Of a stretch of 64,000 nucleotides of DNA, positions 17,054 through 64,000 are shown piece after piece. Numbering within the stretch: the stretch's first letter is position 1; each line of letters opens with the position of its first letter. The stretch covers positions 27,181-91,180 of the forward strand of contig CAYUIZ010000001.1 in the NCBI GenBank assembly GCA_964444885.1, given 5' to 3'. Made by a program: the position numbers and the translations under genes. The notes below the pieces were generated by a model. That model did not search any database. It was not told the origin of the DNA and saw nothing but the letters and a program-made list of their open reading frames with translations. The stretch is from an uncultured Sphingobacteriaceae bacterium (GTDB taxonomy: Bacteria; Bacteroidota; Bacteroidia; Sphingobacteriales; Sphingobacteriaceae).

Positions 17054-17058
17054 CGCAA

Positions 17059-49347: not shown

Positions 49348-50745
49348 ATGAGTAGATACAAGAAAATAACGATAAGGCATCTTCGATGGGTAGGGCTACA
49401 GGCATCGCTGATGCTCTTTTTTGGCCCGATGCTCCTGGCCCAACAGGAGGCTGTGGGGTCGCACAACGCGCTCAAACGCTATCTGGCCCATAATGATGGT
49501 AAATTTTCGTGGGAGATCCAAGACAGCCTTATCACGAACAATAGCACCATTTACCAGGTGTTGCTCACGTCCCAGCAATGGCGGGAATTCACGTGGAAGC
49601 ACCAACTCAACGTGGTCGTGCCCAAGATCGTCAAGCACGATGGTGGGCTGTTGTTTATAAGCAGTGGCCGCATGCAGCGCGAGAATCCTAACGAGCCCGA
49701 GTGGCATGATTTGGCGTCCGATGGCATGATCCAGTCGGTCGCGCAGATGGCCGTTGAGAATCACGCCGTCGCCGCGCTGCTGCGCCAAGTGCCCAACCAG
49801 CCCTTATACGGCGGCATGACCGAAGACGAACTGATTTCCTATACGCTGCACCAGTTTCAAAACGACCAGGACTACACGTGGCCCTTGCTGTTTCCGATGG
49901 TGAAGAGTGCCGTCAAGGCAATGGATGCCGTGCAGGAAATTGTACAGAACCGTTCCTCACAGCCTGTTAGCCGATTCGTAGCAACGGGGCTGTCGAAGCG
50001 GGGGTGGACCACCTGGCTCACTGCTTCGCAAGACAGCCGTGTGGAAGCATTGGCACCCATGGTCATCGATATTCTCAATATGCCCGTCAACCTTAATTAC
50101 CAGATTGAGGTATGGCAGGAGTACAGCCCGCAGATACAGGATTACGTGGCGCTGGGCTTGGTGCAGGACGTCGAGAGCGAACGAGGCCGGACTTTAGCCG
50201 AAATGATCGATCCGTATGCGTATCGTAGGTTGCTGGATAAACCCAAAATGCTTTTCATGGGCACAAACGACCAGTATTGGGTGATTGATGCGGTTAAGCA
50301 TTATCTCGACAGCATCCCGGGTGCCAGCTACATCCATTATGTACCCAATGAGGGGCATAGCTTGGGCGACAAAACGCAGGCATTCCGTGCCTTATCCTCG
50401 TTTTGGGGTTTCACCCTGCATGACGAATCCTATCCGGTCCTCACCTGCGATGCGGTGTCGCACTCCGGACAGCTGAGGTTGGATGTCCGGGCCACGCCGT
50501 CCCGGCTGGTCGCGGCAAAATTATGGTATGCCGTGTCTGACGATCAAGATTTTAGGGACGAGAAGTGGCAAAGCCGCGATTTGGATGTCCGGCGGGTCAA
50601 CCGTTTTGTGGTGACGGAGCCTACACCCGTGGCGGGATACAAAGCGTGCTATGTCGATTTGGTTTACGAAGATATTCACGGCGAATATTATAGCCAAAGC
50701 ACCCGCGTGTATGTGGGTGATAAACAGGGATTTTTTATGGATTGA
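49348..50745 (+). CDS. PhoPQ-activated pathogenicity-related (PqaA-type) alpha/beta-hydrolase-like secreted protein
   Basis: Signal peptide. GLSKRGWTTW and the surrounding segments match my memory of Pfam PF10142-type proteins. Biochemical function is unknown. Confidence 0.6.
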   Translation: MSRYKKITIRHLRWVGLQASLMLFFGPMLLAQQEAVGSHNALKRYLAHNDGKFSWEIQDSLITNNSTIYQVLLTSQQWREFTWKHQLNVVVPKIVKHDGGLLFISSGRMQRENPNEPEWHDLASDGMIQSVAQMAVENHAVAALLRQVPNQPLYGGMTEDELISYTLHQFQNDQDYTWPLLFPMVKSAVKAMDAVQEIVQNRSSQPVSRFVATGLSKRGWTTWLTASQDSRVEALAPMVIDILNMPVNLNYQIEVWQEYSPQIQDYVALGLVQDVESERGRTLAEMIDPYAYRRLLDKPKMLFMGTNDQYWVIDAVKHYLDSIPGASYIHYVPNEGHSLGDKTQAFRALSSFWGFTLHDESYPVLTCDAVSHSGQLRLDVRATPSRLVAAKLWYAVSDDQDFRDEKWQSRDLDVRRVNRFVVTEPTPVAGYKACYVDLVYEDIHGEYYSQSTRVYVGDKQGFFMD

Positions 50746-50756
50746 ACTAGCAGGAG

Positions 50757-52091
50757 ATGATGATGAGCATGGTATGTATTCCCCTATTAATTAGGGCTGG
50801 GGCGGTGCGGCGGCGCATCGGCCTATTGATGGTTTTAATGCTGGCTACGGCTTCGGTGTTTTCGCAGATTGCCGATTTGTCACCCATTCGGCCCGGCTTG
50901 TGGCCCGATCGCGTCGTTCTGAACGTGACGGAAGACCCCGCCACCTCCACGGCTGTCACGTGGCGTACCAGTACGGCGGTTAAGGGCGGCGCGGCGCAGC
51001 TCGTAGTTGCCGATCCGCATCCGGCGTCGGTGAGTCAGGCGCTGGCCCAAAGCGCCGATACGGAGGTGTTGCAATTTAGCGAGCTCGAAGCGCATTATCA
51101 TTCGGTCACCTTCAGCGGATTGACGCCGAACACCCGGTATGCCTATCGGGTGGGAGAGGGCGACCATTGGAGTGAGTGGCACCATTTTACAACGGCGGGC
51201 ACGGCTGCGGACGATTTAACCTTCTTGTATTTCGGGGACGTCCAAACGAATATATTGCCGATGTGGTCGCGCGTAGTCCGGCAGGCTTACCGCCAAGCAC
51301 CGGACGCACGCCTAGCCTTATATGCGGGGGACTTGGTAAATCGGGCAAACCGCGACGTGGAATGGGGCGAGTGGTTTGCTGCGGGTGGTTTTATCCACGC
51401 TGAAATCCCGGTGATGCCCACCCCAGGCAACCATGACCACGCATCGACCGATGCGGGCGAAAACCTCATTTCGGCGTATTGGCGGCCACAATTTACCTTA
51501 CCCGAGAACGGGCCTGCCGGTTTGGAGGAAAGCTGCTACTACGTTGATGTGCAGGGCGTCCGGCTTATCTCGATTAATACCCAGCGCTACGAACTGTCCG
51601 AAGATGACCGCAAGAGCCAGCGCGAATGGCTGGCGAGCGTCCTAGCGGATAATCCCAATAAATGGACCTGCCTCCTGATGCACCATCCGGTCTATTCGAC
51701 CAAACGAAACCGCGATAATAAGATGTTGCGTGCGGATTTGAAACCGCTGATCGACCGCTATGGCGTAGATTTGGTGATGCAGGGACATGACCATACCTAC
51801 GTGCGCGGCATGGAAAAAGTGCCGATGCCCAATGGGCAAGCACCGGGCACCATGTACGTTGTATCCGTGAGTGGCCCTAAGATGTCGGATGTCTTGCATG
51901 CCGATTGGATGGAGCGCGTAGCCGGACATACGCAGCTGTTCCACATTGTGGACGTGGCGGGTGATGTCCTTCGTTTCAGGGCTTTCACCGCCACAGGCGA
52001 GCTTTACGACGAGTTCGAGTTGCACAAGTCGCCCGGACAAGCTAATCGACTACTTAACAAGATACCTGAGGGCGTGCCAGAGCGCCAGTAA
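50757..52091 (+). CDS. Secreted metallophosphoesterase with purple-acid-phosphatase-type N-terminal domain
   Basis: PAP N-terminal domain (VTWRT...TPNTRYAYRVG). Metallophosphoesterase motifs GDVQ, GDLVNR, GNHDH, HHP, GHDH. Confidence 0.8.
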   Translation: MMMSMVCIPLLIRAGAVRRRIGLLMVLMLATASVFSQIADLSPIRPGLWPDRVVLNVTEDPATSTAVTWRTSTAVKGGAAQLVVADPHPASVSQALAQSADTEVLQFSELEAHYHSVTFSGLTPNTRYAYRVGEGDHWSEWHHFTTAGTAADDLTFLYFGDVQTNILPMWSRVVRQAYRQAPDARLALYAGDLVNRANRDVEWGEWFAAGGFIHAEIPVMPTPGNHDHASTDAGENLISAYWRPQFTLPENGPAGLEESCYYVDVQGVRLISINTQRYELSEDDRKSQREWLASVLADNPNKWTCLLMHHPVYSTKRNRDNKMLRADLKPLIDRYGVDLVMQGHDHTYVRGMEKVPMPNGQAPGTMYVVSVSGPKMSDVLHADWMERVAGHTQLFHIVDVAGDVLRFRAFTATGELYDEFELHKSPGQANRLLNKIPEGVPERQ

Positions 52092-52109
52092 ATGAGAGGA
52101 GTGTAAAGA

Positions 52110-53033
52110 ATGAAAACGTTTTTTTCCAGTATTGCGATGCGTAGCGCGTGGTGCGGTGCCGTACTGCTTTGCGCGGCTTGCGGCCTACCGGATGAACCGC
52201 TCGATCGGGTTGGCGAAATCTGGGAACTCTATCACGACAGTCCAGAGGCGGTGCTCGTCGTAGCACACCGCGGGGCGCACGCGGATGTTCCTGAGAATTC
52301 ACTGGCTTCGATTGATAAGGCCGTCGAAGCGGGCGTGCATATTGTCGAACTTGATATCCAGCAGACTAAGGACGGGGTTTTTGTAGCCATGCACGACCGT
52401 GTGCTGGACCGAACGACGACCGGGACGGGTGAACTAGCCGACTATACCTACGCGGAACTGCAGTCCGTACGCTTGCTACACCAAGGCAACCCCACGGATT
52501 ACCGGATTCCGACATTGGAGGAAGCGGTTGGCCGCGCCAAAGGCCGGGTTTTGTTGGATATCGATTTCAAGGTGCATGGGCTACAAGCGCGTTTTGATGT
52601 GTTTGATGAGCTTACCAGGCTCGATGCCGAAGACCTCGTGCTGTTTTATTGCTACGACTATACCGAATTGCCCGTGTTGCACGCGTACAACCCGCGCATT
52701 AAAATCATGCCGCGTGCCTACGATTTGGTACAATTTAAGGAAATCGTCGAGTTGGGCCTGACCGATATCATCCATGTCGATGGGTCCTTTTACAGTTCGG
52801 AGGCAGTTGAAAAAATAGTCAACGAAAAGCCTATTCGGATATGGGCCAATGTGCTGGGCCGGCATGATCAGCAGGCCGCACAACATGGATCGGGTGCCTA
52901 CCGCTCATTCTTTGACAAACTGGCGCCCGTGAATGTCGTGCAAACCGATCAGCCACATTTATTAACTGAATATCTGGCGCAGGAGACGGACCGAGCCCTT
53001 GTGACGTCTGCCAGCTATAAAGACGTACGATGA
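52110..53033 (+). CDS. Glycerophosphodiester phosphodiesterase (GDPD) family lipoprotein
   Basis: Lipobox LLCAAC. Motifs: VVAHRGA..PENS, VELDIQQTKDGVFVAMHD. Confidence 0.88.
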   Translation: MKTFFSSIAMRSAWCGAVLLCAACGLPDEPLDRVGEIWELYHDSPEAVLVVAHRGAHADVPENSLASIDKAVEAGVHIVELDIQQTKDGVFVAMHDRVLDRTTTGTGELADYTYAELQSVRLLHQGNPTDYRIPTLEEAVGRAKGRVLLDIDFKVHGLQARFDVFDELTRLDAEDLVLFYCYDYTELPVLHAYNPRIKIMPRAYDLVQFKEIVELGLTDIIHVDGSFYSSEAVEKIVNEKPIRIWANVLGRHDQQAAQHGSGAYRSFFDKLAPVNVVQTDQPHLLTEYLAQETDRALVTSASYKDVR

Positions 53034-54823
53034 CTGCCTTCCGCCGGGTGTTGCCAAGAAGAGCCATTGTCCTGCTGTGGGCTGTTGTTGGATGTGCCTA
53101 TGCCAGCTGTCAGCCGGGGCCGGCGGCCACGGGTACGGTCGATGCGGTCATGGATGACGTGGTGACCCGACTCTATGCCGAGCTGGGCGACAGCCAGTTA
53201 GATACAATCAGTGATGCCTTTATGGCTCACTTCCTGACCGAGGCAGAAAAAGAAACGCTGGCTACGGCGTATTGGCGGTTTGAGGTCAATGTTCCGGTGG
53301 TCGTATCGCTCATGCGGGACACGGCACAGCAGCAGGTACCCTTTTGGTTGGAAGACAGCCCGTTTGTGAAAACGGATTTGATTGTGCGGAACGGTTTGTC
53401 GACCTATGAGGTTTGGCAAGCCGATTTTCCTGCCGGCAAAGTGGGGTTGGGAATCAATGGATTTGACCGGCACCGGCCCGTTTACTTCATTGCGGTAGCG
53501 CCCCAAAACCCGACGGACCAACTTGACATCCAACCTTTGTTTCCGCAGGACCAGCACATTGGGGTGATGGATACCGGATCGTTTACCTACCACGACTGGG
53601 ACGGACTGGTCTTGGAAGAAATTCCCGCCGTACTGCGCGGCCAGGCGCTGTTGACCACAATCCGCGGACGGGCACGCGAGGCCCATGTGATCGGCGGATT
53701 CCGCACCACGGCATTTCCCTCAACCCTCGCCCCAGACCAGATCACGTTGACGCTGGGCGCTGACCCGCGAACCCGCATGACGGTGCAATGGCGCACGGAC
53801 GCCTCCGTCAATGACGCTTGGGTCAAATATTGGCCATCCGGTGGGACGGATACGGTGAAGGTGGATGCCCTACATGCCCCGCTCGAAGACCGGCAACTGC
53901 GAAACGACCGCTATACCAGTCGTTTTACGGCACAGTTGGACGATCTCCACCCGGCCACCGCGTACGGATACATCGTGGGGCACGACGGTTCGGTGTCAGA
54001 CACAATGGCCTTTTCTACGGCCGGCGATACTGGGCCGTTCTCCTTTCTTTGGCTCGGGGACGTGCACAATGACCCGAAGACCGGCGAATTGTTGCAAAAT
54101 GCAGCCCGGACACACCCCGAATCCGCTTTTTGCGTCTTAGCAGGGGACCTCGTCAATACCGGCTTGTACCGCAATGATTGGGACGATCTGCTCGGCTATG
54201 CAGGCCAGGTGTATGGCCATATCCCACTCATGGCCGTGCCCGGCAACCACGACAGCCAGGATGGGCTGGGCGCGTCCATGTATCAGCAGTACCTCCACTA
54301 CCCGCAAAACGGGCCGAGCAACGTGGCACCAGGGTTTACCTATGCATTCCACTACCATAATGCGCTATTTTTGATGGTCGACGTCGTTAGCTTTTCGGCA
54401 GCAGCACAACGTGAATGGATCGCCGACCAACTCGCCCGTACGGATGCGGTTTGGAAGTTTGTCGTGTTTCATTTCCCGCCGTATACCAACAGGGAACCCT
54501 ATGTCGACATTGAACAGGAATGGGTGCCCCTGTTTGACGAATACGGCGTTGATATCGTCATGAACGGGCATTTCCATTATTACCTGCGCACCCAACCCAT
54601 GCGCGCCGGCAAGCCTGTCGCGGCGGGGCAACGGGGGACCACCTACATCATGTCTGTGGGCACGGGAAATAAGAACCAGACCGGCGAAACAGAGGCGCAT
54701 GCGGCCAAACGCGCCAACCAAGGTTACCTATACCAATATGTGCGCGTGGATGGAAATAAAATGATCCATACCAGTTTCGATGCCGGCGGAAACGTAGTTG
54801 ATTCGTTTGAGCTTCGAAAATAA
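53030..54823 (+). CDS. Metallophosphoesterase (purple-acid-phosphatase-like) with an extra ~230-aa N-terminal domain
   Basis: Motifs: MTVQWRT...ATAYGYIVG, GDVHND, GDLVNTG, GNHDS, HFPPY, GHFHYY. The start ATG overlaps the upstream stop (ATGA). Confidence 0.75.
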   Translation: MTAFRRVLPRRAIVLLWAVVGCAYASCQPGPAATGTVDAVMDDVVTRLYAELGDSQLDTISDAFMAHFLTEAEKETLATAYWRFEVNVPVVVSLMRDTAQQQVPFWLEDSPFVKTDLIVRNGLSTYEVWQADFPAGKVGLGINGFDRHRPVYFIAVAPQNPTDQLDIQPLFPQDQHIGVMDTGSFTYHDWDGLVLEEIPAVLRGQALLTTIRGRAREAHVIGGFRTTAFPSTLAPDQITLTLGADPRTRMTVQWRTDASVNDAWVKYWPSGGTDTVKVDALHAPLEDRQLRNDRYTSRFTAQLDDLHPATAYGYIVGHDGSVSDTMAFSTAGDTGPFSFLWLGDVHNDPKTGELLQNAARTHPESAFCVLAGDLVNTGLYRNDWDDLLGYAGQVYGHIPLMAVPGNHDSQDGLGASMYQQYLHYPQNGPSNVAPGFTYAFHYHNALFLMVDVVSFSAAAQREWIADQLARTDAVWKFVVFHFPPYTNREPYVDIEQEWVPLFDEYGVDIVMNGHFHYYLRTQPMRAGKPVAAGQRGTTYIMSVGTGNKNQTGETEAHAAKRANQGYLYQYVRVDGNKMIHTSFDAGGNVVDSFELRK

Positions 54824-54850
54824 CCTGTATTAACCGTTAATTGAACCAAT

Positions 54851-56053
54851 ATGATGATGACGAATACACAACGAATGCGGCTTATTTTGCCAGTTTTAGT
54901 GCTTGCGACCTGGCTTGGGAATGCCGGGGCTGCCCTGGCACAGGAGCCCGTGTTGCAACGATCTTTGATATTTAACCTGCAGCACCAGCATGTGCACGGC
55001 AGCAGTTTGGTTGAATTGCCCAATGGCGACTTGCTAATCGCTTGGTTCCAAGGCAGCGGGGAGCGCTCGGCCGACGACGTTCGTATCATGGGTGCCCGGT
55101 TGCCGAATGGGGCTACGCAGTGGAGCCAGCCCTTCGAGCTGGCCGATACGCCACACCTGCCGGATTGCAACCCCGTTTTGTTCATGGCCGGCGACAAATT
55201 GTTCCTCGTATGGATAGCCGTGCAATCCAATCGGTGGGAAAATTCCATACTCCGCGTGCGGACTACCACCCAGTATGCAGCCCAAGGCGCACCCACGTGG
55301 GAATGGCAAGACAATATCCTGCTGAAACCCGACGACAGTTTTGCCGAAGAGGTAGCCAGCAAGCTGAAAAAATTGCCTCCGCTGCAAGCCGGTTGGGCCG
55401 AATATGCGCCACGTTACGACCAGTTGATCATCACGGCCAGCCACGACGCGACCAAGCGCGGCATAGGCTGGATGACGCGTATCAAGCCGTTGATACTCGC
55501 CGGTGGGAAAATACTGTTGCCGTTGTATTCAGACGGGTTCAATCTGTCCCTTATTGCTATTTCCGAGGACGGCGGAAACTCCTGGCTGCCGAGCCTGCCC
55601 ATGGTAGGCCGAGGCAACATCCAGCCCGCATTGCTGCAAAGGCGGGACGGCAGTCTTGTGGCATACATGCGCGACAGCGGGGATGCGCCTATCCGTCTGC
55701 AGGTCAGTGAGTCGCATGACGAAGGCATGAGCTGGTCGGTGGCCGACAAAACCGAGTTTCCGAGTGGGGCAAGCGTTGACGCGCTCGCGCTTGCCGACGG
55801 GCGGTGGGCGATGCTCTTCAACGATATCGACGACGGCCGCTACCGGCTGAGTTTATACGTCTCCGACGACGAAGGCGAGACCTGGCCCGTTCGGTATCCG
55901 ATTGAGCTCGATCCGGAACAACAGGGACGGTTTTCCTATCCTTCCCTTATTCAGGCAAGCGATGGCAAGATCCATCTAAGCTATTCATACCATCTTGGTT
56001 CGGATAACAAAGCCATCAGCCACGTGGTTGTTGATCCCGCCCGGTTGCGTTAA
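54851..56053 (+). CDS. Secreted sialidase-fold BNR/Asp-box beta-propeller protein
   Basis: Signal peptide. Asp-boxes SEDGGNSW, SHDEGMSW, SDDEGETW. N-terminal HGSSLVELPNGD. No F/Y-R-I-P motif found. Confidence 0.8.
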   Translation: MMMTNTQRMRLILPVLVLATWLGNAGAALAQEPVLQRSLIFNLQHQHVHGSSLVELPNGDLLIAWFQGSGERSADDVRIMGARLPNGATQWSQPFELADTPHLPDCNPVLFMAGDKLFLVWIAVQSNRWENSILRVRTTTQYAAQGAPTWEWQDNILLKPDDSFAEEVASKLKKLPPLQAGWAEYAPRYDQLIITASHDATKRGIGWMTRIKPLILAGGKILLPLYSDGFNLSLIAISEDGGNSWLPSLPMVGRGNIQPALLQRRDGSLVAYMRDSGDAPIRLQVSESHDEGMSWSVADKTEFPSGASVDALALADGRWAMLFNDIDDGRYRLSLYVSDDEGETWPVRYPIELDPEQQGRFSYPSLIQASDGKIHLSYSYHLGSDNKAISHVVVDPARLR

Positions 56054-56079: not shown

Positions 56080-58320
56080 ATGATGAGACTTCATTTGTTT
56101 GTGTCGCTTGTGCTGATCGTGCTGGTCAGCGCCTGTTCGGACCGTTCAGGGCCTATCCAACAACAACATTATGCGGACACCGTATTTTCGCAGGATTACA
56201 GCGTTAAATATTATGCCGAGGGCGACTTGGCCGCCTTGAAAAAAGCGTATGTTAACCAAGAGGGGAAAGTACAGATTCTGGATGCCAATGGCTTGCGCCA
56301 CCTGCACGACGGGCGCTTCCTCTACCCCGGCAAGGTCGTGGAAGACCGCACCTACCGGTTTATGGCGGCCAAGGACATTGTTGATATGCTGTCTGCCCAA
56401 GGGCAGTTTGTCTATCTGGATGCCAAGGCCATCTTTAGTAACGCATGGTCTGGCCGGTTGTATGCAACACATAAGCTGGAAGCGCCTACAGGATTTGCTG
56501 CAAATGGCCAACTTGACTTTTTGGTCACGGATGGTAAGCGCTTGCATTTTATCCAAGGCGAGGACGTCGTATGGGAAGGGACGATTGCCAGCGGCGAAGT
56601 GAAACAGGTATTGAGCCATCCGGCCGATGATGCGCTGTTTTACGTGCTCACCGATGAGTCGATCCACCGCTTTTCGGCCACAAATAAGCAGCTGGAGCCG
56701 CTCTATGCGGGGGAATCGCTGACGGCGGCCGATGTCGATGCGACTAGCGGGGAGCTGATTGTCGGTACGTCCGACGGCTATTTCCGATTGGGCTTAGCGC
56801 AAGGGGATGTCATTGGCGATATGCATCGGAAACTGCCTTGGACGGAAATCACCGCGGTGAAGGTCGTGGGTGATAATTATTGGTTTGGCACGTCCCGAGG
56901 GGCTTTTGTCGTCAAAGCAACGGGAGAAGTCGACTATTATGCCAGCGAGCGCTGGCTACCCAGCGACCAGGTCGTGCATCTGGCGCCCGGACGGGAGGGG
57001 TCGATGCTCGTGCTGACGACTGCTGGGCTCGGCGAGATTTGCTTCAAGCCGATGAGCCTGTACGATAAGGCCATGTACTATGAGCAACAAGTGCGCGACC
57101 GACATATCCGGAACGGGTTTAATTCAACCTTGTCAGGGTTGGTAAATGGCGACCTGAGCACGGGCTTTTTGTCGGATTCGGACAATGATGGGCTCTGGAC
57201 GTCCCTCTACCTGGCCGCACAGGCGTTTCGTTATGCAACAACCGGCGAGGAGCAGGCGCTGGACCATTGCATCGAATCGCTGGACGCCATGGCCCGGTTG
57301 TTCGATATCCATCACGTGCCGGGATTTCCAGCGCGCTCCTACGAGCGCCGGGGCGAAGGCGATACCCGAAACCAGCTTTCCGACCCTGAACGCTGGCAAC
57401 TGGCCGACCACCCGGATTGGTATTGGAAAGCGACTACCAGCAGCGACGAAGCCATTGGGCATATTTTTGCCTTCGGCGTCGTGGCCGAGCTGGTGGAACA
57501 CGAGGCGACACGCCAAAAAGCCATCCAACTCATCGATACGCTGATGGGACATATTGTCAAAAACGACTTGTACTTAGTGGATTATGATGGTCAGCCAACG
57601 ACGTGGGGCCGCTGGAATCCGGAATATGTGAACGGCTTCCCCACCTCCGTAGGGGACCGGAAGCTAAACTCGTCCAACATCATCGGTATGCTGCAAACTG
57701 CCTATCACTTTACGGGCAAGGAAATCTACAAGGAAACGGCGTTCGACCTGATGGACAACCATGGCTACTTGGAGAACCTGATGCGTCCGATGAGTGAGAT
57801 TGGCAAAGCACCCGATGGTTCCGACGACTGGAGCCAGATGTTGTCGAGCGCTTGGAACCACTCCGATGATGAGATGTATTTTGCAGGCTATTGGGGCCTG
57901 TACCGCTACGCGTTCAACGATACGCTGCAGGCGCAATTCAAAGAGTCGATACTGGACCATTGGGAAGCCGAGCGCCCCGAAAAGGAGGGAGCATGGAACA
58001 TTTTTACCGCTATTACCGGCGCAGCCGAATTTGACATGGACGAAGCGGCGTGGTACCTGCGCGAATATCCACTCGACCTGATCCAGTGGCGTATTCAAAA
58101 CAGCCATCGCAAGGACATCGTTCCGATGGCGCCAAACTTCAGGACGCAAACCATCGAAGAAGTCCTCCCGCCCGACGAACTGCGAATTACCCGCCACAAT
58201 GCCAATCGTTTCTCGCTCGACGGCGGCAATAATTCGGCGGAAAACAGTGCCGGCGACATCTGGCTGTTTCCCTACTGGATGGGCCGATATTTACAGGTAA
58301 TTGGTCCGCCACAGGAATAG
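56080..58320 (+). CDS. Hypothetical 746-aa lipoprotein. The N-terminal half has propeller-like repeats; the C-terminal half is helical and may be an alpha/alpha-toroid
   Basis: Lipobox LVSAC. Repeats of the form VGTSDGYFRL / WFGTSRGAFVV. The C-terminal half is rich in W/Y/D helices (DNDGLWTSLYLAAQAFRY, TSSDEAIGH). No family recognised. Confidence 0.5.
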   Translation: MMRLHLFVSLVLIVLVSACSDRSGPIQQQHYADTVFSQDYSVKYYAEGDLAALKKAYVNQEGKVQILDANGLRHLHDGRFLYPGKVVEDRTYRFMAAKDIVDMLSAQGQFVYLDAKAIFSNAWSGRLYATHKLEAPTGFAANGQLDFLVTDGKRLHFIQGEDVVWEGTIASGEVKQVLSHPADDALFYVLTDESIHRFSATNKQLEPLYAGESLTAADVDATSGELIVGTSDGYFRLGLAQGDVIGDMHRKLPWTEITAVKVVGDNYWFGTSRGAFVVKATGEVDYYASERWLPSDQVVHLAPGREGSMLVLTTAGLGEICFKPMSLYDKAMYYEQQVRDRHIRNGFNSTLSGLVNGDLSTGFLSDSDNDGLWTSLYLAAQAFRYATTGEEQALDHCIESLDAMARLFDIHHVPGFPARSYERRGEGDTRNQLSDPERWQLADHPDWYWKATTSSDEAIGHIFAFGVVAELVEHEATRQKAIQLIDTLMGHIVKNDLYLVDYDGQPTTWGRWNPEYVNGFPTSVGDRKLNSSNIIGMLQTAYHFTGKEIYKETAFDLMDNHGYLENLMRPMSEIGKAPDGSDDWSQMLSSAWNHSDDEMYFAGYWGLYRYAFNDTLQAQFKESILDHWEAERPEKEGAWNIFTAITGAAEFDMDEAAWYLREYPLDLIQWRIQNSHRKDIVPMAPNFRTQTIEEVLPPDELRITRHNANRFSLDGGNNSAENSAGDIWLFPYWMGRYLQVIGPPQE

Positions 58321-58383
58321 GAACGGTCGGGTAGCGGGTAACGCAAAAACGTCGTGTCCAGCGCGACTCGCACGAGCCACAAG

Positions 58384-58414
58384 CCCCGGATTGTCAATGC
58401 AATCCGGGGTTTTT
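58384..58414 (+). terminator. Rho-independent terminator after the 746-aa gene
   Basis: ccccggattg / tcaatg / caatccgggg forms a 10-bp perfect stem, followed by ttttt. Confidence 0.75.
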
Positions 58415-58608
58415 ATTTGATCGGGCTGCAGGATGATAATATCGTCAATTTAAATGCTAATATCGTATAAATAATCACCCCGGTTATCCAGTAACTTTGG
58501 ATAACCAATAGCAAACCTGGGTAAATAAATTATAAACCAAGACGTGCGTCGCAAGACGATCAACCGCCCAGGAAGCAAGGAAACGAACCCAAATACATTG
58601 TTATAACG

Positions 58609-59703
58609 TTGCTTCGAATGAGTCGGGTAGACAATCACAAACGATTAGTATCACTGGATGCTTTCCGGGGATTTACCATTGCTGCCATGATTTTGGTCAA
58701 TACGCCAGGTTCATGGGACACGGTGTACCCGCCGCTGTTGCATGCGGAGTGGCACGGGGTGACGCCGACGGATTATATCTTCCCGTTTTTTATCTTCATC
58801 GTCGGGGTTTCCATTACCCTTTCCTTTAGCAAACTACGGGCAGCCGGAAAATCCAAGGCTGCCTTGGGCTGGAAAACGCTCAAGCGCGCCGCAATCATTT
58901 TCGGATTGGGGCTCTTCCTCTGGCTGTTTCCCACGTTTGATTTTTCCGAACTGCGTATACCGGGTGTGTTGCAACGCATCGCGCTGGTGTTCCTGGCTTG
59001 CGCCTTGCTATACCTGCACACCACGTGGCGGCAACAGGCCATCATTGCCACGGCCATTCTCGTGCTCTACTGGGCTGCCATGAAGCTGGTGCCGGTGCCG
59101 GGTGTGGGCACGGGCCTCCTGGAGCCGGGACAAAACCTGGCAGCCTGGATCGACAGCCAGTTGGTTCCGGGCAAGATGTGGCAAGGAACCTGGGATCCGG
59201 AGGGTATACTGAGCACGTTTCCCGCCATCGTCACTGGAATTTTGGGGATGCTGGCCGGTCGCCTTCTGGGCACTGGCCGCATTTCCGAAGAGCGACGCAT
59301 CTTGTGGCTTTTTTTAGGGGGGGTCGTCCTATTCGCGGTGGGAGCAATGTGGGGCTGGGTGTTTCCCATCAATAAGAATCTGTGGACGAGCTCCTACGTG
59401 CTGTACACCGGCGGGCTGGCAGCCCTCGCCTTGGCCTCCGCTTATTTTGTCATCGAGATATTGGGCCATGCGAAATGGGCCAAGGTTGGGGTCATCTTCG
59501 GTTCCAATGCCATCACGGCTTATGTACTCGGCAGCATACTGCCCAGTCTCTTGCCTTCGGCCAACCAGTGGTACGTCTCTACATTCATCGAAGGATCGCG
59601 TATGCCCGAGCTCATGTCATTGCTTTGGGCGATCGGCATCTGCGTGCTTTGTTACATCCCCATTTACGTCTTGTACCGAAAACGAATCTTTATAAAAATT
59701 TAA
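58609..59703 (+). CDS. Heparan-alpha-glucosaminide N-acetyltransferase-like (DUF5009/DUF1624) integral membrane acyltransferase
   Basis: N-terminus RLVSLDAFRGFTIAAMILVN is typical of the family. About 10 TM helices. Confidence 0.7.
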   Translation: MLRMSRVDNHKRLVSLDAFRGFTIAAMILVNTPGSWDTVYPPLLHAEWHGVTPTDYIFPFFIFIVGVSITLSFSKLRAAGKSKAALGWKTLKRAAIIFGLGLFLWLFPTFDFSELRIPGVLQRIALVFLACALLYLHTTWRQQAIIATAILVLYWAAMKLVPVPGVGTGLLEPGQNLAAWIDSQLVPGKMWQGTWDPEGILSTFPAIVTGILGMLAGRLLGTGRISEERRILWLFLGGVVLFAVGAMWGWVFPINKNLWTSSYVLYTGGLAALALASAYFVIEILGHAKWAKVGVIFGSNAITAYVLGSILPSLLPSANQWYVSTFIEGSRMPELMSLLWAIGICVLCYIPIYVLYRKRIFIKI

Positions 59704-59718
59704 CGCTACTTACATACC

Positions 59719-60804
59719 ATGCACCTAACTTTACCATTCAACCCAATCAACTGTAACCGAGCCGTGGCCCTGTTTATACTCGTTTTTACGTTTTTTTCGT
59801 TTGTCCGATGCGGTTCTCCGGAAACGGTCGACAATACCCTTCCGGTCATTACACAACGCTCGTTCGTCTTCGGCGATAATCGTCCATTCCCGCAGTGCCA
59901 TGCATCGACGCTGGTGAGGCTTGACAATGGTCATTTTCTGGTCGCATCGTTTGGGGGTACCCGCGAAAAGGACGACGACGTAGGCATCTGGCTTTCCAAA
60001 GGCGATGGAGCGACGTGGACCGCGCCGGTGGAAGTAGCGAAAATCCGGAACGATCCGCACTGGAACCCCGTATTGTTCCAAGCACCCTCTGGCCAAGTCA
60101 TCCTTTATTTCAAGGTTGGAAAGACCATTCCCAAGTGGGAAACCTGGGTGATGACATCCGACGACAACGGCGAAACGTGGTCTGAAGCGTACGAATTGGT
60201 AGCTGGCGACCACGGCGGCAGGGGTCCGGTGCGCAATAAGCCCATCATCCTTTCTGATGGAACGTGGCTCGCTGGCGCGTCGCACGAGGAAGGGCAATGG
60301 GATGTGTTCATCGACCGAAGCGAGGATGGGGGAAACACCTGGCAACAAACCGAATACCTGGAAGTCGACCGTGAAGAATTGACCGGCGAAGGCATCATCC
60401 AGCCTACCTTATGGGAATCCGAACCCGGCAAGGTACACATGCTGGTCCGAAGCAGTGCTGGCGCGATTTACCGCAGCGATTCCGAAGATTATGGCAAAAC
60501 ATGGTCGCCCGCCTACCGCACCGACCTGCCCAACCCCAATACCGGGATTGATCTGGTCAAGCTGGAAGACGGCACACTCGCCCTGCTGTATAATCCGGAT
60601 GGAAAAAACTGGGGGTCGCGGGGTACGCTCTTACTGGCATTTTCGTATGACAACGGAAAGACTTGGCCCGAAGAGATTGAGATTGATAAGGACGGCGAGG
60701 AAAGCGAGTTTTCCTACCCAGCGATTATTCAGTGGGACGGACATATCGGCTTGACATACACGTGGGAGCGGTCGGATATCGCGTTTGTGACGCTCGAACT
60801 ATAA
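59719..60804 (+). CDS. Sialidase-fold BNR/Asp-box beta-propeller protein, paralogue of 54851..56053
   Basis: Asp-boxes SKGDGATW, SDDNGETW, SEDGGNTW, SEDYGKTW, SYDNGKTW. N-terminal HASTLVRLDNGH. Shares PHWNPVLF with the paralogue's CNPVLF. Confidence 0.8.
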   Translation: MHLTLPFNPINCNRAVALFILVFTFFSFVRCGSPETVDNTLPVITQRSFVFGDNRPFPQCHASTLVRLDNGHFLVASFGGTREKDDDVGIWLSKGDGATWTAPVEVAKIRNDPHWNPVLFQAPSGQVILYFKVGKTIPKWETWVMTSDDNGETWSEAYELVAGDHGGRGPVRNKPIILSDGTWLAGASHEEGQWDVFIDRSEDGGNTWQQTEYLEVDREELTGEGIIQPTLWESEPGKVHMLVRSSAGAIYRSDSEDYGKTWSPAYRTDLPNPNTGIDLVKLEDGTLALLYNPDGKNWGSRGTLLLAFSYDNGKTWPEEIEIDKDGEESEFSYPAIIQWDGHIGLTYTWERSDIAFVTLEL

Positions 60805-60869
60805 TACATGAAGAATTCATATCAACCTTAACGAAAACATGACAATCGTAAACCTAAAAACACTGTACT

Positions 60870-63800
60870 ATGAAAATGACATTAACGAGTAACCGAAAAT
60901 GGATGCTGATGCTGTTGGCTCTGGTAGCATACAGCGTGGTTCCGTTCTTGGCCCAGGCGCAGTCTGGGCAACGACAGGTCTCCGGGCAAGTGCGCTCGGC
61001 CGCCGACGGGACACCCATCTCGGGTGCCAGTGTCAGCGTCAGGGGAACCAACGTGGCAACGGCAACCAACGAAGAAGGACGATACAGCATCAATGTGCAG
61101 GGTGCAGACGCTGTATTGATATTTACGTTTTTGGGGCATGAAGCGTTAGGAGTGAGTGTAGGCCAGCGCACGAGCATCGACGTCACGCTGTCGCCGTCGC
61201 AGGAGATGATAAGCGAGGTCGTGGTGACCGCTTTGGGAATCGAACGCGAAACGAAATCGCTGGGATATAGTGTGGGCGTCGTAGGGGGAGAAGAGATGGT
61301 CAAAGTCGCCCAAGAAAATATTTTCGGCGGGCTCGCTGCCAAATTGCCCGGTGTGACATTAAGTGAGACAAGCGGACCAGGATCATCGGTCAGTATGATC
61401 ATTCGAGGAGCAAACTCCTTGACGACCGACAACCAACCTTTATTCGTCGTAGACGGTGTGCCGCTCTCCAGCGGGTTGAATAACCAGCGACAGATGGGCG
61501 ACCGTAATATTGTGGATTACGGAAACGCGATATCGGACATCAACCCCGACGACATTGAGAGTATATCCGTATTGAAGGGGCCCAGTGCAGCGGCATTGTA
61601 TGGGTCGCGTGCGGGTAACGGCGTAGTGCTGATTACCACAAAATCTGGGAGTACAGGTGAACGGGCAACCGTCAGCTTCTCGACAAGCAACGTATTCGAA
61701 ACACCTGTAAAGTTTTTAGACTTCCATTACATGTATTCCTCCGGAAACCGCGGGAACTTCCTGGACGAGAGCTCGGGGTATTGGACCGGGCTTCCCCTGG
61801 ATAGGGGCGTTACGGCCGTGCAGTGGAACAGCCCCCTGGATGCGAATGGCAGCCCCATAGCGACCGAACTGCGTTCCTATGAGGATAACATGAAAAATTT
61901 CCTGCGAACTGGTTTAACCTCCACAAACAACCTCTCATTAAGTGGTGGAAGCGCACGGGGCAACTATCGTTTGTCATACAACAACATGACACATGAGGGC
62001 ATGATCCCCAACTCGAACCTCCAACGCAATGCATTGTCCGCCGTATTGGCGTATGACATTAACGAAAGCTTAAAACTAAGTACGAATATCAACTTATCCC
62101 GTTCCAACTCGGACAACCGCCCGGCAACGGCAAACCGTACCGCCAATCCTTTGGAATGGGTGATGGCGTATCCCCATGTCAATGTGCTGGAACTCAAGGA
62201 CTACTGGATGGATGGGCAGGAAAATATCCGTCAACGAAGTGTTTTCCCGGGAGCAGATAACCCCTACTTCTTGGCAAACGAGCTCAACAACGGATTCACA
62301 CGTGATCGTGCTTATGGCAATATCAAATTGGATTGGAATATTGCGCCAAATTGGTCCGCATTCGGGCGGGTATCCGTAGACATGTCCCACGAAAACCGGG
62401 AAACCAAAGTGCCCCATAGCTACTCACGGGCGGCACAAGGCGGATATTACCTCCAAGGGCTAGCGAACAACGAGTTGAACTCCGATGTGTTGCTCACCTA
62501 CAAGAATACGTTTGGTGATTTCGATCTCAGCGCATCCGGCGGAGGTAACTACATGAGGCAAGCCTATCGTGATTCGTATATGGGCGGTAGTGCGTTGACC
62601 ATTCCGGGGCTTTACCGCATCGGCAACGTACCAACCAATATGCTCCAATATTCGAATGGCACGTCTGACCGGGCTATCTACAGTCTTTATGCCTTGGCCT
62701 CCTTTGGATATAAAGGCATGTTGTATCTGGATTTGACCGCACGAAACGACTGGGCGAGTTCCCTGCCGGTCACCGACCAATCGTTTTTCTACCCGTCCGC
62801 ATCCATGAGCTGGTTGATCAACGAAACATTCTCCATGCCTACCACCGTGTCATTATTCAAGCTGAGAGCTGGTTGGGCGCAAGTCGGTAACGCGCCAGGA
62901 GCCTACCAGATCCATCAGATGCTGGGGACGGGGCAATACGGTTCGCTGATTACTTCTAGTGTGCCAGGTGGACTCAGGAACCCAATGCTGAAGCCTGAGA
63001 TTGCGGAATCAACCGAATTTGGAATCGACCTAAACCTTTTTAAAAACCGACTACGTTTTGAGGGAACATACTACAACGTGGGTAACCGAAACCAGCAATT
63101 GCCAATACCCCTTCCGGAGTCATCGGGATTTGCCAGTACGTTTGTGAATGCCGGATTGATCGTCAGTAAAGGATGGGAGTTTGCGATAGGGGGGACCCCA
63201 GTCCAAACGTCTGATTGGACATGGGACATCTCCGCAAACTTCTACCAAAACCGCACCACCGTCGAGAAGTTGACGGAAGGCTTCAGCGTATTGACACTTT
63301 GGAGTGACAACGGAGGTGGTTCGTTTGCCAGGGAAGGGGAACGCTTGGGCAACCTATACAGCCGAGGGTTTGCTTATGTAAACGATCCGTCGTCCGACTA
63401 TCATCGGTGGCCGATTTTGAACACGCAGGGCAAGTGGATCGAAAATGGTGATCCTGATGCACGGGTGCACGTCGGTAATTATAACCCCGATTTTCAAATA
63501 GGTATGCAGACTACCTTGCAGTATAAGCGCTTTTCATTAAGTGCGAGCTTTGATTGGCGTCACGGCGGGGAATTTATGTCCTTTACCTACCGCTACGGAG
63601 GCTCAAACTGGCAGTCGGCAAGACAGATGCGAGAGCTAATCCCGGGGGGATTATATGACGAGCGAGACTTGATCGATTTACTTAAGTCCGATCCGGAGCG
63701 TTACATTATCCCTAAAAACGGCCATTTCCCGCGGGTGGGCGGCTACGAACAAGCGACAGGTGGATACTGGAACGACAACTTCGGTACGGCCAATGAAGCC

Positions 63801-64000
63801 TACGACGGAGTGTTTATTCCCGGAGTGATAGCCAACGCCGACGGTACGTATACGGAGCACCTCGGTGGCGACGGAACGGTCATTTATCCTGCTTCACGGC
63901 AGTACGCATGGGGTTTTAACCAAGCGGTTACGTTCGACGCTTCATTTATCAAACTTCGTGAGGTGACAATTGGCTACGATATCCCGAACCTGTGGAAGCT
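60870..64000 (+). CDS. SusC/RagA family TonB-linked outer-membrane protein, 5' part; continues beyond the window
   Basis: My own translation from ATG 60870: MKMTLTSNRKWMLMLLALVAYSVVPFLAQAQ, a CarboxypepD_reg segment (VSGQVRSAADGTPISGASVSVRGT..EEGRYSI), VVTALGIERETKSLGYS and the plug PLFVVDGVP...SISVLKGPSAAALYGSRAGNGVVLITTKSG. The same frame still reads KLREVTIGYDIPNLWK at 63951-63998. It is absent from the supplied ORF track, presumably because it has no stop inside the window. Confidence 0.9.
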   Translation, partial: MKMTLTSNRKWMLMLLALVAYSVVPFLAQAQSGQRQVSGQVRSAADGTPISGASVSVRGTNVATATNEEGRYSINVQGADAVLIFTFLGHEALGVSVGQRTSIDVTLSPSQEMISEVVVTALGIERETKSLGYSVGVVGGEEMVKVAQENIFGGLAAKLPGVTLSETSGPGSSVSMIIRGANSLTTDNQPLFVVDGVPLSSGLNNQRQMGDRNIVDYGNAISDINPDDIESISVLKGPSAAALYGSRAGNGVVLITTKSGSTGERATVSFSTSNVFETPVKFLDFHYMYSSGNRGNFLDESSGYWTGLPLDRGVTAVQWNSPLDANGSPIATELRSYEDNMKNFLRTGLTSTNNLSLSGGSARGNYRLSYNNMTHEGMIPNSNLQRNALSAVLAYDINESLKLSTNINLSRSNSDNRPATANRTANPLEWVMAYPHVNVLELKDYWMDGQENIRQRSVFPGADNPYFLANELNNGFTRDRAYGNIKLDWNIAPNWSAFGRVSVDMSHENRETKVPHSYSRAAQGGYYLQGLANNELNSDVLLTYKNTFGDFDLSASGGGNYMRQAYRDSYMGGSALTIPGLYRIGNVPTNMLQYSNGTSDRAIYSLYALASFGYKGMLYLDLTARNDWASSLPVTDQSFFYPSASMSWLINETFSMPTTVSLFKLRAGWAQVGNAPGAYQIHQMLGTGQYGSLITSSVPGGLRNPMLKPEIAESTEFGIDLNLFKNRLRFEGTYYNVGNRNQQLPIPLPESSGFASTFVNAGLIVSKGWEFAIGGTPVQTSDWTWDISANFYQNRTTVEKLTEGFSVLTLWSDNGGGSFAREGERLGNLYSRGFAYVNDPSSDYHRWPILNTQGKWIENGDPDARVHVGNYNPDFQIGMQTTLQYKRFSLSASFDWRHGGEFMSFTYRYGGSNWQSARQMRELIPGGLYDERDLIDLLKSDPERYIIPKNGHFPRVGGYEQATGGYWNDNFGTANEAYDGVFIPGVIANADGTYTEHLGGDGTVIYPASRQYAWGFNQAVTFDASFIKLREVTIGYDIPNLWK

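Follow-up and report, generated by a model that had tools for sequence, protein, structure and literature searches.

What substrate would call for phosphoesterases, sialidase-fold proteins and a SusC transporter in a single gene array is the question raised by a locus of an uncultured Sphingobacteriaceae bacterium (GenBank assembly GCA_964444885.1, contig CAYUIZ010000001.1, positions 27,181 to 91,180 of the forward strand). This stretch of 64,000 nucleotides, referred to here as the window, ends in nine consecutive plus-strand genes (49348-64000), which a preliminary description made from the letters alone had read as a locus for a phosphorylated glycoconjugate carrying an ulosonic acid. [quoted passage not shown] The broader statement, that the locus is one co-regulated SusCD-linked regulon built around an ulosonate hydrolase and lyase pair, is considered probable.

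Extent of the locus and its shared promoters

The nine open reading frames (ORFs) were recovered at their coordinates from the ORF list and the sequence at the SusC start, with intergene gaps from 49348 onward of 11, 18, -4, 27, 26, 288, 15 and 65 nt, and Pfam bore out the earlier domain calls. The array begins with a secreted PhoPQ_related alpha/beta hydrolase (MEROPS S82; 49348-50745; Pfam 8e-96), followed by PAP444 (444 aa; 50757-52091), a GDPD-family phosphodiesterase lipoprotein (52110-53033; Pfam 1e-27) and PAP597 (597 aa; 53030-54823), the first and last of these three being metallophosphoesterases of the purple acid phosphatase (PAP) type. Next come the BNR_2 sialidase-fold propeller BNR400 (400 aa; 54851-56053; Pfam 5e-43) and the 746-aa lipoprotein U746 (56080-58320). 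A NagX/HGSNAT-type transmembrane acetyltransferase (58618-59703; Pfam HGSNAT_cat 3e-9), a second BNR_2 propeller, BNR361 (361 aa; 59719-60804; Pfam 1e-73), and a SusC-type TonB-dependent transporter (60870-64000; Pfam CarbopepD_reg and Plug), cut by the window end, complete it. Inspection of the translations shows Sec signals or lipoboxes at the N-termini of all exported products.

The locus is wider than these nine genes and runs from an AraC gene at 40679 to SusC-SusD-x-SusC-SusD past 64000. Whether SusD follows beyond the window had been left as a question, and it does: a metagenome contig with identical proteins (L001) continues with SusC (1097 aa), SusD (562 aa), a 174-aa ORF, SusC (1147 aa) and SusD (557 aa), and the locus goes on for at least 7.8 kb beyond the window end. 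The first of these SusD proteins is of the SusD-like_2/SusD-like type, and the SusC/SusD linkage claimed earlier therefore holds, with a second pair in addition. The neighbouring susC-like and susD-like genes that mark a polysaccharide utilisation locus (PUL) are present across the window and L001. Co-localised, co-regulated glycan-degrading enzymes are present as genes (two BNR_2 proteins, an (alpha/alpha)6 protein and a common promoter layout), with degradation itself predicted.

On the upstream side the boundaries had been drawn too narrowly, as 40679-49236 belongs to the same regulon. Here an AraC-family regulator on the minus strand (cupin/AraC_binding N-terminal domain and HTH_18 in Pfam; 40679-41620) is divergent from five further plus-strand genes. 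These encode a FucIso-like aldose-ketose isomerase of 536 aa, a candidate D-arabinose isomerase (Pfam Fucose_iso_C; 41834-43444); a ribulokinase of the FGGY family (NCBIfam equivalogs; 43460-45103); an SSF sodium:solute symporter (Pfam 2.6e-42; 45192-46739), likely the inner-membrane importer of the released sugar acid; a DUF3748 and PD40 beta-propeller lipoprotein (Pfam; lipobox LCAAAC; 46789-48192); and a divergent DHDPS/NAL-family enzyme (Pfam 7.5e-23; 48301-49236), a candidate Kdo (ulosonate) aldolase whose gene is the first of its unit. The locus is chromosomal, since the remaining window is filled with housekeeping genes (gyrA, purL, amtB, htpG, helicase). Its nearest named relatives are Parapedobacter, whose counterparts of the 746-aa protein and the isomerase are about 70% and 76% identical, respectively.

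The evidence for co-regulation comes from the promoters. Comparison of intergenic regions brought out a common 17-mer, AATGATAAYATYSTAYA, and a position weight matrix (PWM) for this putative operator was trained solely on the spacers between the divergent AraC and isomerase genes (AraC|FucIso) of eight other loci, with 100 simulated 64-kb sequences as background. Its top two matches in the whole window lie before the FucIso-like gene (25.6) and before NagX (24.5), against a simulated maximum of 20.5. The Bacteroidota -7 box has the consensus TAnnTTTG, known from Bacteroides and Flavobacterium promoters. It occurs 22 times on the plus strand of the window, and three of these occurrences precede the SSF, DHDPS and NagX genes, while the related CACCTTTG precedes the FucIso-like gene.

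All four promoters lie on the plus strand. Promoter 1 (41701-41768) has an operator-like site at 41701-41717 (AATGATAATATCCTACA), a weaker half-site at 41722-41738 and the -7-box-like CACCTTTG at 41761-41768. Promoter 2, before the SSF gene (45086-45153), combines a site at 45086-45102 (score 12.5) with the -7 box TAACTTTG at 45146-45153, and promoter 3, before the DHDPS gene (48198-48265), a site at 48198-48214 (10.3) with the -7 box TACCTTTG at 48258-48265. Promoter 4, before NagX (58432-58499), carries tandem sites 21 nt apart (58432-58448, 14.4, and 58453-58469, 24.5) and the -7 box TAACTTTG at 58492-58499. The offset from operator to box is exactly 60 nt at all four (41701/41761, 45086/45146, 48198/48258 and, for the distal site of promoter 4, 58432/58492). 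A reciprocal scan, starting from all nAnnTTTG boxes of the window on either strand, found a TGMTAAYAT-type site beginning exactly 60 nt upstream only at these four. Off-locus PWM matches at 12102, 37763, 12100 and 24002 have no -7 box at +60 and were taken as chance. A sigma-70 promoter scan was uninformative (12 matches against 13.4 expected), and the Bacteroidota -7 box was used instead. The mechanically called TTG starts of NagX (58609, for an ORF of 58609-59703) and of the symporter gene (45138) are probably wrong, and ATG 58618 and ATG 45192 are preferred. The former, which is the start called on L001, widens the 288-nt gap to 297 nt; the latter lies downstream of the -7 box of promoter 2, and TTG 45138 lies upstream of it.

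The same +60 spacing is found in ten other loci (L003, L004, L083, L085, L087, L092, L094, L095, L098 and L122). In L004, a Sphingobacteriaceae metagenome-assembled genome (MAG), the site orthologous to promoter 3 scores 17.7 and has TACCTTTG at +60. Tandem sites orthologous to promoter 4 occupy the U746/NagX spacer of L003 (27.4), L004 (25.1) and L083 (22.9); the sites of L083 precede NagX and the S82 gene, and a FucIso homologue is absent from that locus. The layout, often with a second site 21 nt downstream of the first, could be used to map the AraC regulon across Bacteroidota. The divergent AraC|FucIso arrangement itself recurs in L004, L087, L088, L092, L094, L095, L098, L112 and L122. 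Parapedobacter sp. 10938 carries its U746 homologue on one contig and its AraC|FucIso-ribulokinase-SSF module on another; about 1.8 kb downstream of this standalone module (L087), at 16681-17982, lies a gene for a PAP444-type phosphoesterase (58% identical).

The nine genes had been treated as one transcription unit. However, an intrinsic-terminator-like hairpin (58381-58412, plus strand; 14-bp stem with 7 GC pairs and a T-rich tail) follows the U746 gene and splits the array, which is therefore not a single operon. We conclude that there are four units: FucIso-ribulokinase; SSF-DUF3748; DHDPS, S82, PAP444, GDPD, PAP597, BNR400 and U746; and NagX-BNR361 with the two SusCD pairs. The adjacent cupin-type AraC protein presumably drives this regulon by binding the putative operator, and because the presumed regulator is of the cupin type, its effector would be a small, sugar-like molecule. 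We infer a sugar-responsive regulon rather than a Pho-type locus. A plain L-arabinose operon beside an unrelated PUL was rejected, because the operator is common to the NagX-SusC unit in four genomes and the DHDPS enzyme has relatives fused to BNR361-type domains.

Gene order is preserved in relatives. Loci of Parapedobacter and Sphingobacteriaceae (L003, L004, L006 and L083) show S82-PAP-BNR-U746-NagX-SusC in the same succession, and the arrangement is therefore not a chance one. The closest syntenic locus, L004, is contiguous (AraC|FucIso-SSF-DHDPS-S82-PAP-BNR400-U746-NagX-BNR361-x-SusC-SusD-ceramidase-like), and in the Parapedobacter loci L003 and L083 DHDPS likewise heads the enzyme array.

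Two neighbouring regions of the window were also noted. At 27027-36066 on the plus strand, genes for an FGE-sulfatase-like protein, two GFO_IDH_MocA oxidoreductases, ApbE, a xylose-isomerase-like TIM barrel, an MFS nucleoside/H+ symporter-type protein and a GMC oxidoreductase resemble an oxidative glycoside-processing cluster; it lacks an operator/box pair and has no connection with the regulon. Directly upstream of the AraC gene (36731-40491) lie an M28 peptidase (minus strand) and an S9 prolyl-oligopeptidase-family protein with PD40 (plus strand), in a region that includes the weak operator-like match at 37763.

Sialidase-fold proteins and the proposed Kdo branch

Both BNR proteins have the six-bladed Asp-box propeller of the glycoside hydrolase (GH) family GH33 type: their BNR_2 matches reach 248 and 148 bits (cut-off 31.4), with single BNR repeats staying under their own Pfam cut-off. 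Both are distant from solved sialidases. In a HMMER alignment with pneumococcal NanB, BNR361 keeps R557, approximately R619, and the nucleophile Y653, and the acid/base D270 aligns with Glu83. The RIP arginine R245 aligns with His61, which leaves the GH33 arginine triad incomplete. A C-H-A-S-T motif takes the place of this arginine throughout the BNR361 subfamily, and [CV]-H-[AG]-S is found in BNR400 and every relative examined; the Tyr is kept in [FY]-S-Y-P. The two proteins are thus not canonical GH33 sialidases, and they seem to retain the carboxylate-binding and Tyr features of enzymes acting on glycosides of 2-keto-3-deoxy acids.

Domain fusions point in the same direction. An exhaustive search of cluster representatives for BNR361 homologues, followed by Pfam, gave a set of fusions 41-52% identical to BNR361: BNR_2 with GH78 (P0368), BNR_2 with DHDPS (P0263), DHDPS with BNR_2 (P0311) and BNR_2 with a GH127-like domain (P0292). 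In sequence, the DHDPS domains of these fusions fall within the divergent subfamily of the window's enzyme (33-34% identical; E 1e-51 for P0263 and 9e-38 for P0311) and share its F-A-x-C-x-S-S-E-M, Y-E-C-P and K-D-T motifs. P0368, which is 42% identical to BNR361 and has the same C-H-A-S-T motif, is fused to a GH78 rhamnosidase. The same pair of domains, GH78 and GH33, makes up BT1013 of B. thetaiotaomicron, whose GH33 part is a validated Kdo hydrolase acting on chain C of rhamnogalacturonan II (RG-II) (PMC13501991, PMC11214529). Genes recur together as well: BNR-DHDPS-BNR are consecutive in the Proteiniphilum locus L018, and the metagenomic locus L122 is a compact AraC|FucIso-SSF-DHDPS-SusC-SusD-BNR-BNR-BNR. 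The ulosonic acid proposed in the preliminary description is, given the fusions to DHDPS and GH78, still the best reading of the BNR proteins, and BNR361 is a candidate Kdo hydrolase.

Other partners of these propellers were observed. In L018, a 702-aa protein (10468-12576) joins a BNR400-type propeller to a YdjC-like carbohydrate deacetylase, and in many Cytophagales loci YdjC genes directly precede BNR400-type genes; the window has the NagX acetyltransferase in place of YdjC. Among BNR361 homologues (P0244, P0268, P0371), fusion to an FAD-dependent oxidoreductase occurs twice and fusion to a methyl-accepting chemotaxis protein with Cache domains once.

The DHDPS protein of the window is a clear member of its superfamily (Pfam PF00701, 81 bits against a cut-off of 22.1). 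Its Y-E-C-P and H-K-D-T motifs, assigned by inspection and conserved in the fused homologues, supply the Tyr and the Schiff-base lysine. It is not of the NanA type, scoring 40.3 bits against 281 (NF003164) and 36.1 against 382 (TIGR00683), and it falls far under the NCBIfam equivalog cut-offs for NanA, DapA and KdgD. The FucIso-like protein matches Fucose_iso_C (34.9 bits, cut-off 29.3), with Fucose_iso_N1 under its cut-off (18.3 against 28), and gave no NCBIfam match and no PDB match with phmmer. It is more than 70% identical across Bacteroidota orders; outside Bacteroidota it adjoins FGGY kinases and, as judged by eye, a class II-aldolase-like and an ABC permease-like ORF. The ribulokinase is an AraB-type equivalog (NF003154, 728.8 bits against 428; TIGR01234, 609.4 against 583.25).

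What these enzymes would do together can be read against known chemistry. In the known D-arabinose route, fucose isomerase serves as the D-arabinose isomerase, and D-ribulose 5-phosphate requires no epimerase; among the window ORFs scanned, none resembled an AraD epimerase. One Mucilaginibacter relative carries a separate, canonical araA/araB/araD set for L-arabinose. Cleavage of the sialic acids Neu5Ac or Kdn would yield N-acetylmannosamine (ManNAc) or mannose, and the locus has no enzymes for either. Kdo aldolase, by contrast, gives pyruvate and D-arabinose (PMC10619137), and NAL/DHDPS enzymes form Kdo from D-arabinose in the reverse reaction (PMC4016182). The DHDPS, FucIso-like, ribulokinase and SSF proteins fit, by family assignment, a path from Kdo to pyruvate and D-arabinose, and on through D-ribulose to ribulose 5-phosphate. 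The aldolase activity (EC 4.1.2.23) was counted among the orphan enzymes in 2007 and had no annotation in E. coli as late as 2023, and no sequence is assigned to it in the searchable literature.

FucIso, DHDPS and SSF genes occur together in eight other loci (L085, L086, L088, L092, L095, L098, L112 and L122). Two of these are of RG-II/pectin type: L086, with GH78, GH28, GH2, DUF3826 and a C-H-S-A-type BNR protein, and L095, with GH2, DUF3826 and an ORF that looks pectate-lyase-like by eye (in Pfam, a weak TSP3 repeat only). The markers DUF3826 and GH2 are independent of DUF3748, whose gene adjoins DHDPS/FucIso in L085 and L092; the literature on the function of DUF3748 and PF10142 yielded marginal mentions only. 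DUF1537 is a four-carbon acid-sugar kinase. Its N-terminal domain is part of a second set of genes in L086 (Aridibaculum aurantiacum, 12763-21596), beside FucIso/DHDPS/SSF, together with DHDPS, an aldehyde dehydrogenase, an Fe-alcohol dehydrogenase, PdxA and a second SSF. Placed in a GH78/GH28/GH2/DUF3826/BNR locus, this set could be a matching catabolic branch for Dha (3-deoxy-D-lyxo-heptulosarate), the other ulosonic acid of RG-II.

U746, the phosphoesterases and NagX

According to the preliminary description, no glycosidase was recognisable in the array. This stands at the level of Pfam; it does not stand at the level of folds, since U746 has an (alpha/alpha)6 barrel of the glycosidase/epimerase type. 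Sequence and profile searches with U746 gave no match in Pfam, NCBIfam or PDB. AlphaFold models (pLDDT 73 at full length; 81.6, with pTM 0.87, for the C-terminal domain) predict an N-terminal beta-propeller followed by this barrel. Foldseek with the full-length model returned generic beta-propellers only, and the C-terminal domain was then searched alone; its matches were GH9 (including exo-beta-glucosaminidases), AGE epimerases, GH76 and GH88, at TM 0.4-0.48, a likeness at fold level only. More than 1799 homologues were found, with at least 578 matches across species-representative genomes, nearly all labelled Bacteroidota, and identity across orders is 54-60%. Of 81 sources (the best 80 genome loci and the window), 33 have two to four copies of the U746 family, mostly in tandem (for example L005, L038, L039, L050 and L071), a pattern usual for glycosidases directed at different linkages within one complex glycan. 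Together, the predicted fold and these features make U746 a candidate glycosidase of an unannotated family.

Its neighbourhood was surveyed over 10 kb in the same 80 loci. SusC is present in 32 and SusD in 30; BNR genes are present in 33, in 25 cases immediately adjacent and with about 60% identity. DUF3748 follows (24 loci, 19 immediately adjacent), then YdjC (18), the PAP family (17, of which 11 immediately adjacent), GH92 and GH20b-like genes (13 each), S82 (7), NagX, DHDPS and ceramidase-like genes (6 each, the last in L004 and five others) and GDPD-like genes (5). Clusters with alkaline phosphatase-like and GDPD-like genes, identified by eye, and Pfam-confirmed metallophosphoesterase genes recur around U746. 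Compact operons with U746 and a PAP597-type gene were seen in L056, L058, L061 and L067; in L058, a Dysgonomonadaceae MAG, the order is SusC-SusD-U746-PAP597-BNR400. In L018, SusD-U746-PAP597 is followed by BNR, DHDPS and the BNR400::YdjC fusion. Because such compact loci recur in distant Bacteroidota, the link between phosphoesterase, sialidase-fold protein and U746 is conserved and ancient. The earlier view that phosphoesterases, sialidase-fold proteins and a glucosamine acetyltransferase did not come together by accident is thereby strengthened, as PAP597-type, BNR400-type and U746 genes recur beside SusCD in these distant genomes.

One of the 80 loci (L078) lies on a MAG contig labelled Thalassobius (Alphaproteobacteria), which probably reflects a binning error and not gene transfer; the other 79 are from Bacteroidota. 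In Cyclobacterium, MurQ-like, ROK and MFS genes beside U746 suggested the use of N-acetylmuramic acid (MurNAc) or peptidoglycan, an idea dropped as those genes are absent from the window.

The three phosphoesterases noted earlier are all present in the window, but to count all three as conserved core is an overstatement, as GDPD and PAP444 vary with lineage. Among the close syntenic loci, GDPD is found in L003 only (missing from L004 and L083), and PAP444 in L004 and L006 (missing from L003 and L083); both are treated as variable accessories and PAP597, which has an unassigned N-terminal region of 230 aa, as a core gene. PAP444 and PAP597 have the Pfam pair Pur_ac_phosph_N and Metallophos, but on inspection G-D-L-V-N occupies the place of the GDxxY tyrosine ligand of purple acid phosphatases, and on these motifs they are better called PAP-like metallophosphoesterases. 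GDPD clearly belongs to its family (PF03009, 98 bits against 23.6, with HRG...ENS...ELD...MHD motifs) and lies under all NCBIfam GlpQ/UgpQ equivalog cut-offs.

The "PqaA-like" label given to the first hydrolase agrees with Pfam PhoPQ_related; the family, MEROPS S82, is barely characterised (PMC11878206), and phmmer found no PDB match for the protein. NagX exceeds the cut-off for HGSNAT_cat (37.3 bits against 22) and has the W-H-G histidine; against the equivalog NF046061 it reaches 219 bits, under the cut-off of 480, with full-length coverage. In fitness data from five bacteria, NagX-type proteins are needed for glucosamine use, and they have been proposed to N-acetylate periplasmic glucosamine; alternatively, the window's NagX could be a MurT-like transporter (PMC9007349). 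Following SusD in L004 is a ceramidase-like gene.

Substrate, alternatives and related systems

In the proposed scheme, the SusCD pairs would bind and import a phosphorylated glycoconjugate bearing a 3-deoxy-ulosonic acid, whose phosphate and phosphodiester substituents would be stripped by periplasmic or surface metallophosphoesterases and, in this lineage, by GDPD. Both sialidase-fold enzymes would free the ulosonic acid, U746 would act as a further glycosidase of a new family, and NagX would N-acetylate exposed glucosamine. The free acid, most likely Kdo, would enter through the SSF symporter, after which the divergent DHDPS-family lyase would cleave it to pyruvate and D-arabinose; the FucIso-like enzyme would turn D-arabinose into D-ribulose, and the ribulokinase would produce ribulose 5-phosphate. 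That the sugar is Kdo, handled through D-arabinose, has roughly even odds on the evidence of gene families.

The target would thus combine a Kdo-type acid, phosphate mono- and diesters, glucosamine with a free amine and, going by L004, an amide-linked lipid. In the inner core and lipid A of lipopolysaccharide (LPS), Kdo is often 4-phosphorylated or substituted with phosphoethanolamine, phosphates stand at the 1 and 4' positions, and N-acylated glucosamine is freed after deacylation. LPS inner core/lipid A fits all four features, and the upstream catabolic genes favour this first candidate of the preliminary description. Debris of this kind, or another Kdo-bearing phosphoglycan from bacterial necromass, is the likeliest natural substrate, although LPS core/lipid A in particular is a best guess, put forward tentatively. 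Capsules with Kdo linkers on lysophosphatidylglycerol would also fit GDPD. More speculative, and somewhat doubtful, is a dedicated system for feeding on the LPS inner core and lipid A of dead Gram-negative cells, which would comprise the first Kdo aldolase genes, a full route from Kdo through D-arabinose to ribulose 5-phosphate, U746 as a new GH family, His-variant Kdo hydrolases and an AraC-type Kdo/D-arabinose sensor with a -60/-39 operator layout.

Several observations weigh against a Kdo regulon. Enzyme specificities, induction and operator binding are read from sequence, as are the identity of the sugar and the substrate. Taken alone, the operator-like sites before SSF and DHDPS have noise-level scores (12.5 and 10.3) and are rescued solely by the fixed spacing, and the catabolic module stands beside U746 only in the window and L004. 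The first triad arginine is absent from both BNR proteins, and it is ambiguous which Glu partners the nucleophile (E223 aligns only across a 4-residue gap, and Arg stands at that position in BNR400); the likeness to BT1013 is one of domain architecture as described, not of sequence alignment. The FucIso-like protein, a weak Pfam member without a solved relative, could be an L-arabinose or L-fucose isomerase and has a class II-aldolase-like ORF beside it in other phyla. The ribulokinase model is that of AraB, an L-ribulokinase, and L087 has isomerase, kinase and SSF without DHDPS, like a plain pentose operon. Lastly, the GH92, GH20b-like, YdjC, MurQ-like and ROK kinase neighbours of U746, and one GH172, would suit mannose- or hexosamine-rich glycolipids or D-arabinan equally.

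These two substrates can be set against the rest of the locus. For inositol-phosphoceramide-type glycolipids, such as plant or fungal glycosylinositol phosphoceramides (GIPCs), glycosylphosphatidylinositol (GPI) anchors or Bacteroidota sphingolipids, GDPD and the PAP-like enzymes of the window would cut inositol phosphate, and NagX would acetylate free glucosamine, with U746 and the BNR proteins trimming the head-group sugars; this agrees with the ceramidase-like genes in L004 and five more U746 loci, with the 13 loci that have GH92 alpha-mannosidases and with the 18 that have YdjC. Such glycolipids contain no ulosonic acid, though, which leaves the BNR-DHDPS fusions and the lyase, isomerase and ribulokinase without a role; with inositol catabolic genes absent and GDPD in only 5 of 80 related loci, they are an improbable target. 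The actinobacterial D-arabinan of arabinogalactan and lipoarabinomannan would give the isomerase a direct purpose: fucose isomerase dominates the proteome of Dysgonomonas gadei on D-arabinan (PMC10115798), the U746 locus L050 has a GH172/DUF2961 gene, and the DHDPS-free module of L087 is in keeping with it. Propeller and barrel enzymes would then free D-arabinose, the phosphoesterases would attack either the phosphatidylinositol anchor or the GlcNAc-1-phosphate linker, and free galactosamine would be the target of NagX. However, GH172 and GH183/DUF4185 are absent from the window in Pfam, the Tyr and two Arg characteristic of enzymes that act on ulosonates are retained in the BNR proteins, and the DHDPS lyase, which heads the phosphoesterase unit and whose subfamily is fused to BNR361-type domains, would have nothing to do. 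D-arabinan is thus unlikely to be what the locus serves. Salvage of Kdo from side chains of plant RG-II would require the same chemistry and differ only in its source, plant rather than bacterial envelope. The validated Kdo hydrolase BT1013 belongs to an RG-II PUL, FucIso/DHDPS/SSF modules occur in the RG-II- or pectin-like L086 and L095, and BNR fusions include GH78 and a GH127-like domain; yet GH28, GH78, GH2, PL1 and DUF3826 are absent from the window and its syntenic relatives, and the phosphoesterases, NagX and the ceramidase-like protein of L004 would find no target in RG-II, so that this source, too, has little probability.

A Pho-type phosphorus scavenging locus, induced by phosphate depletion and using the BNR proteins and U746 merely to expose phosphate, is very unlikely. 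Three phosphoesterases do stand beside SusC/SusD, alkaline phosphatase-like, metallophosphoesterase and GDPD-like genes recur around U746, and Flavobacterium PusCD transporters, co-localised with phosphomonoesterases and phosphodiesterases, are induced only on depletion of inorganic phosphate (Pi) (PMC8115612). Against this, the four promoters share the operator of the AraC|isomerase spacer beside a cupin-type AraC gene, a complete carbon-catabolic branch (symporter, lyase, isomerase, kinase) lies in the same regulon, Pfam and ORF scans of the window found none of PhoB/PhoR, PstS and PhoX, and GDPD and PAP444 are dispensable in close relatives. An additional layer of phosphate control on the regulon may exist. 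BNR_2, DHDPS-family and SSF proteins are also the classic gene types of nan clusters, and an ordinary Neu5Ac/Kdn locus with conventional sialidases and a NanA-type lyase might be expected from them. Such a locus is highly improbable here: the DHDPS protein scores 36-40 bits against NanA cut-offs of 281-382, His replaces the RIP arginine in both BNR proteins, NanE epimerase and ManNAc kinase are absent, and the steps downstream fall to a pentose-type isomerase and a ribulokinase.

Kdo is present in nearly every Gram-negative outer membrane, some capsules and plant RG-II, yet its catabolic aldolase is without an assigned gene. Searches of the literature revealed no Kdo catabolic pathway, no gene for EC 4.1.2.23 and no LPS- or Kdo-degrading PUL, and found no locus of this composition, in line with the preliminary description. 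If the Kdo reading is true, it provides testable candidates for the aldolase, for the D-arabinose branch, for a Kdo hydrolase clade and for a large unannotated enzyme family, and would explain how carbon and phosphorus are recycled from bacterial envelope debris by the abundant Bacteroidota of soil, water and gut. Even with the substrate wrong, the operator/-7-box design and the BNR-DHDPS and BNR-GH78 fusions stand on sequence evidence, and can help to annotate the thousands of genes that now go by "exo-alpha-sialidase", "fucose isomerase" or "hypothetical protein".

Compared with known systems, the locus has the general build of SusC/SusD PULs: adjacent SusC-SusD pairs (two here), enzymes that are secreted or lipoproteins, a regulator of its own, and uptake of the released sugar across the inner membrane for breakdown in the cytoplasm. 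It departs from the usual PUL in having no Pfam GH family besides the GH33-like BNR_2, in the dominance of phosphoesterases, sialidase-fold proteins and an unannotated propeller/barrel protein, and in the use of an AraC regulator with four identical promoter layouts rather than a hybrid two-component system (HTCS), SusR or an extracytoplasmic function (ECF) sigma/anti-sigma pair. With nan clusters it shares the logic by which an exo-hydrolase frees a 2-keto-3-deoxy acid, a symporter imports it and a DHDPS/NAL lyase splits off pyruvate; the differences are a FucIso-like isomerase and ribulokinase in place of NanE/NanK, a lyase far under NanA scores and hydrolases without the RIP arginine. BT1013 is, like the kin of BNR361, a sialidase-fold protein in a PUL, and its GH78 and GH33 pair is matched by P0368 in domain architecture. 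The window's propeller is standalone, without rhamnosidase or pectinase, and its companions are phosphoesterases and NagX.

Flavobacterium Pus loci resemble the window in coupling SusCD-like transporters to periplasmic phosphomono- and diesterases instead of carbohydrate-active enzymes (Lidbury et al., PMC8115612). They are defined by induction on Pi depletion and lack sugar catabolic genes, whereas the window has an AraC-type regulon with lyase, isomerase and kinase. KdoH2 is another sialidase-like protein linked to Kdo. KdoH1/KdoH2 of Francisella and Helicobacter, reviewed in PMC4402001 and PMC3573668, remove Kdo from lipid A-core. Compared by description, theirs is a two-component, inner-membrane remodelling of the cell's own LPS, not SusCD-linked nutrient uptake. 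The D-arabinose route of E. coli B and D. gadei likewise leads through the fucose-isomerase superfamily and an FGGY pentulokinase to ribulose 5-phosphate, and the D. gadei isomerase, compared by description, is encoded in a PUL; in the window, D-arabinose is proposed to come from aldol cleavage of Kdo, not from D-arabinan, and the isomerase is a distant, uncharacterised branch. The locus is thus a PUL in kind, with nan-like logic, a BT1013-like hydrolase and a Pus-like content of phosphoesterases.

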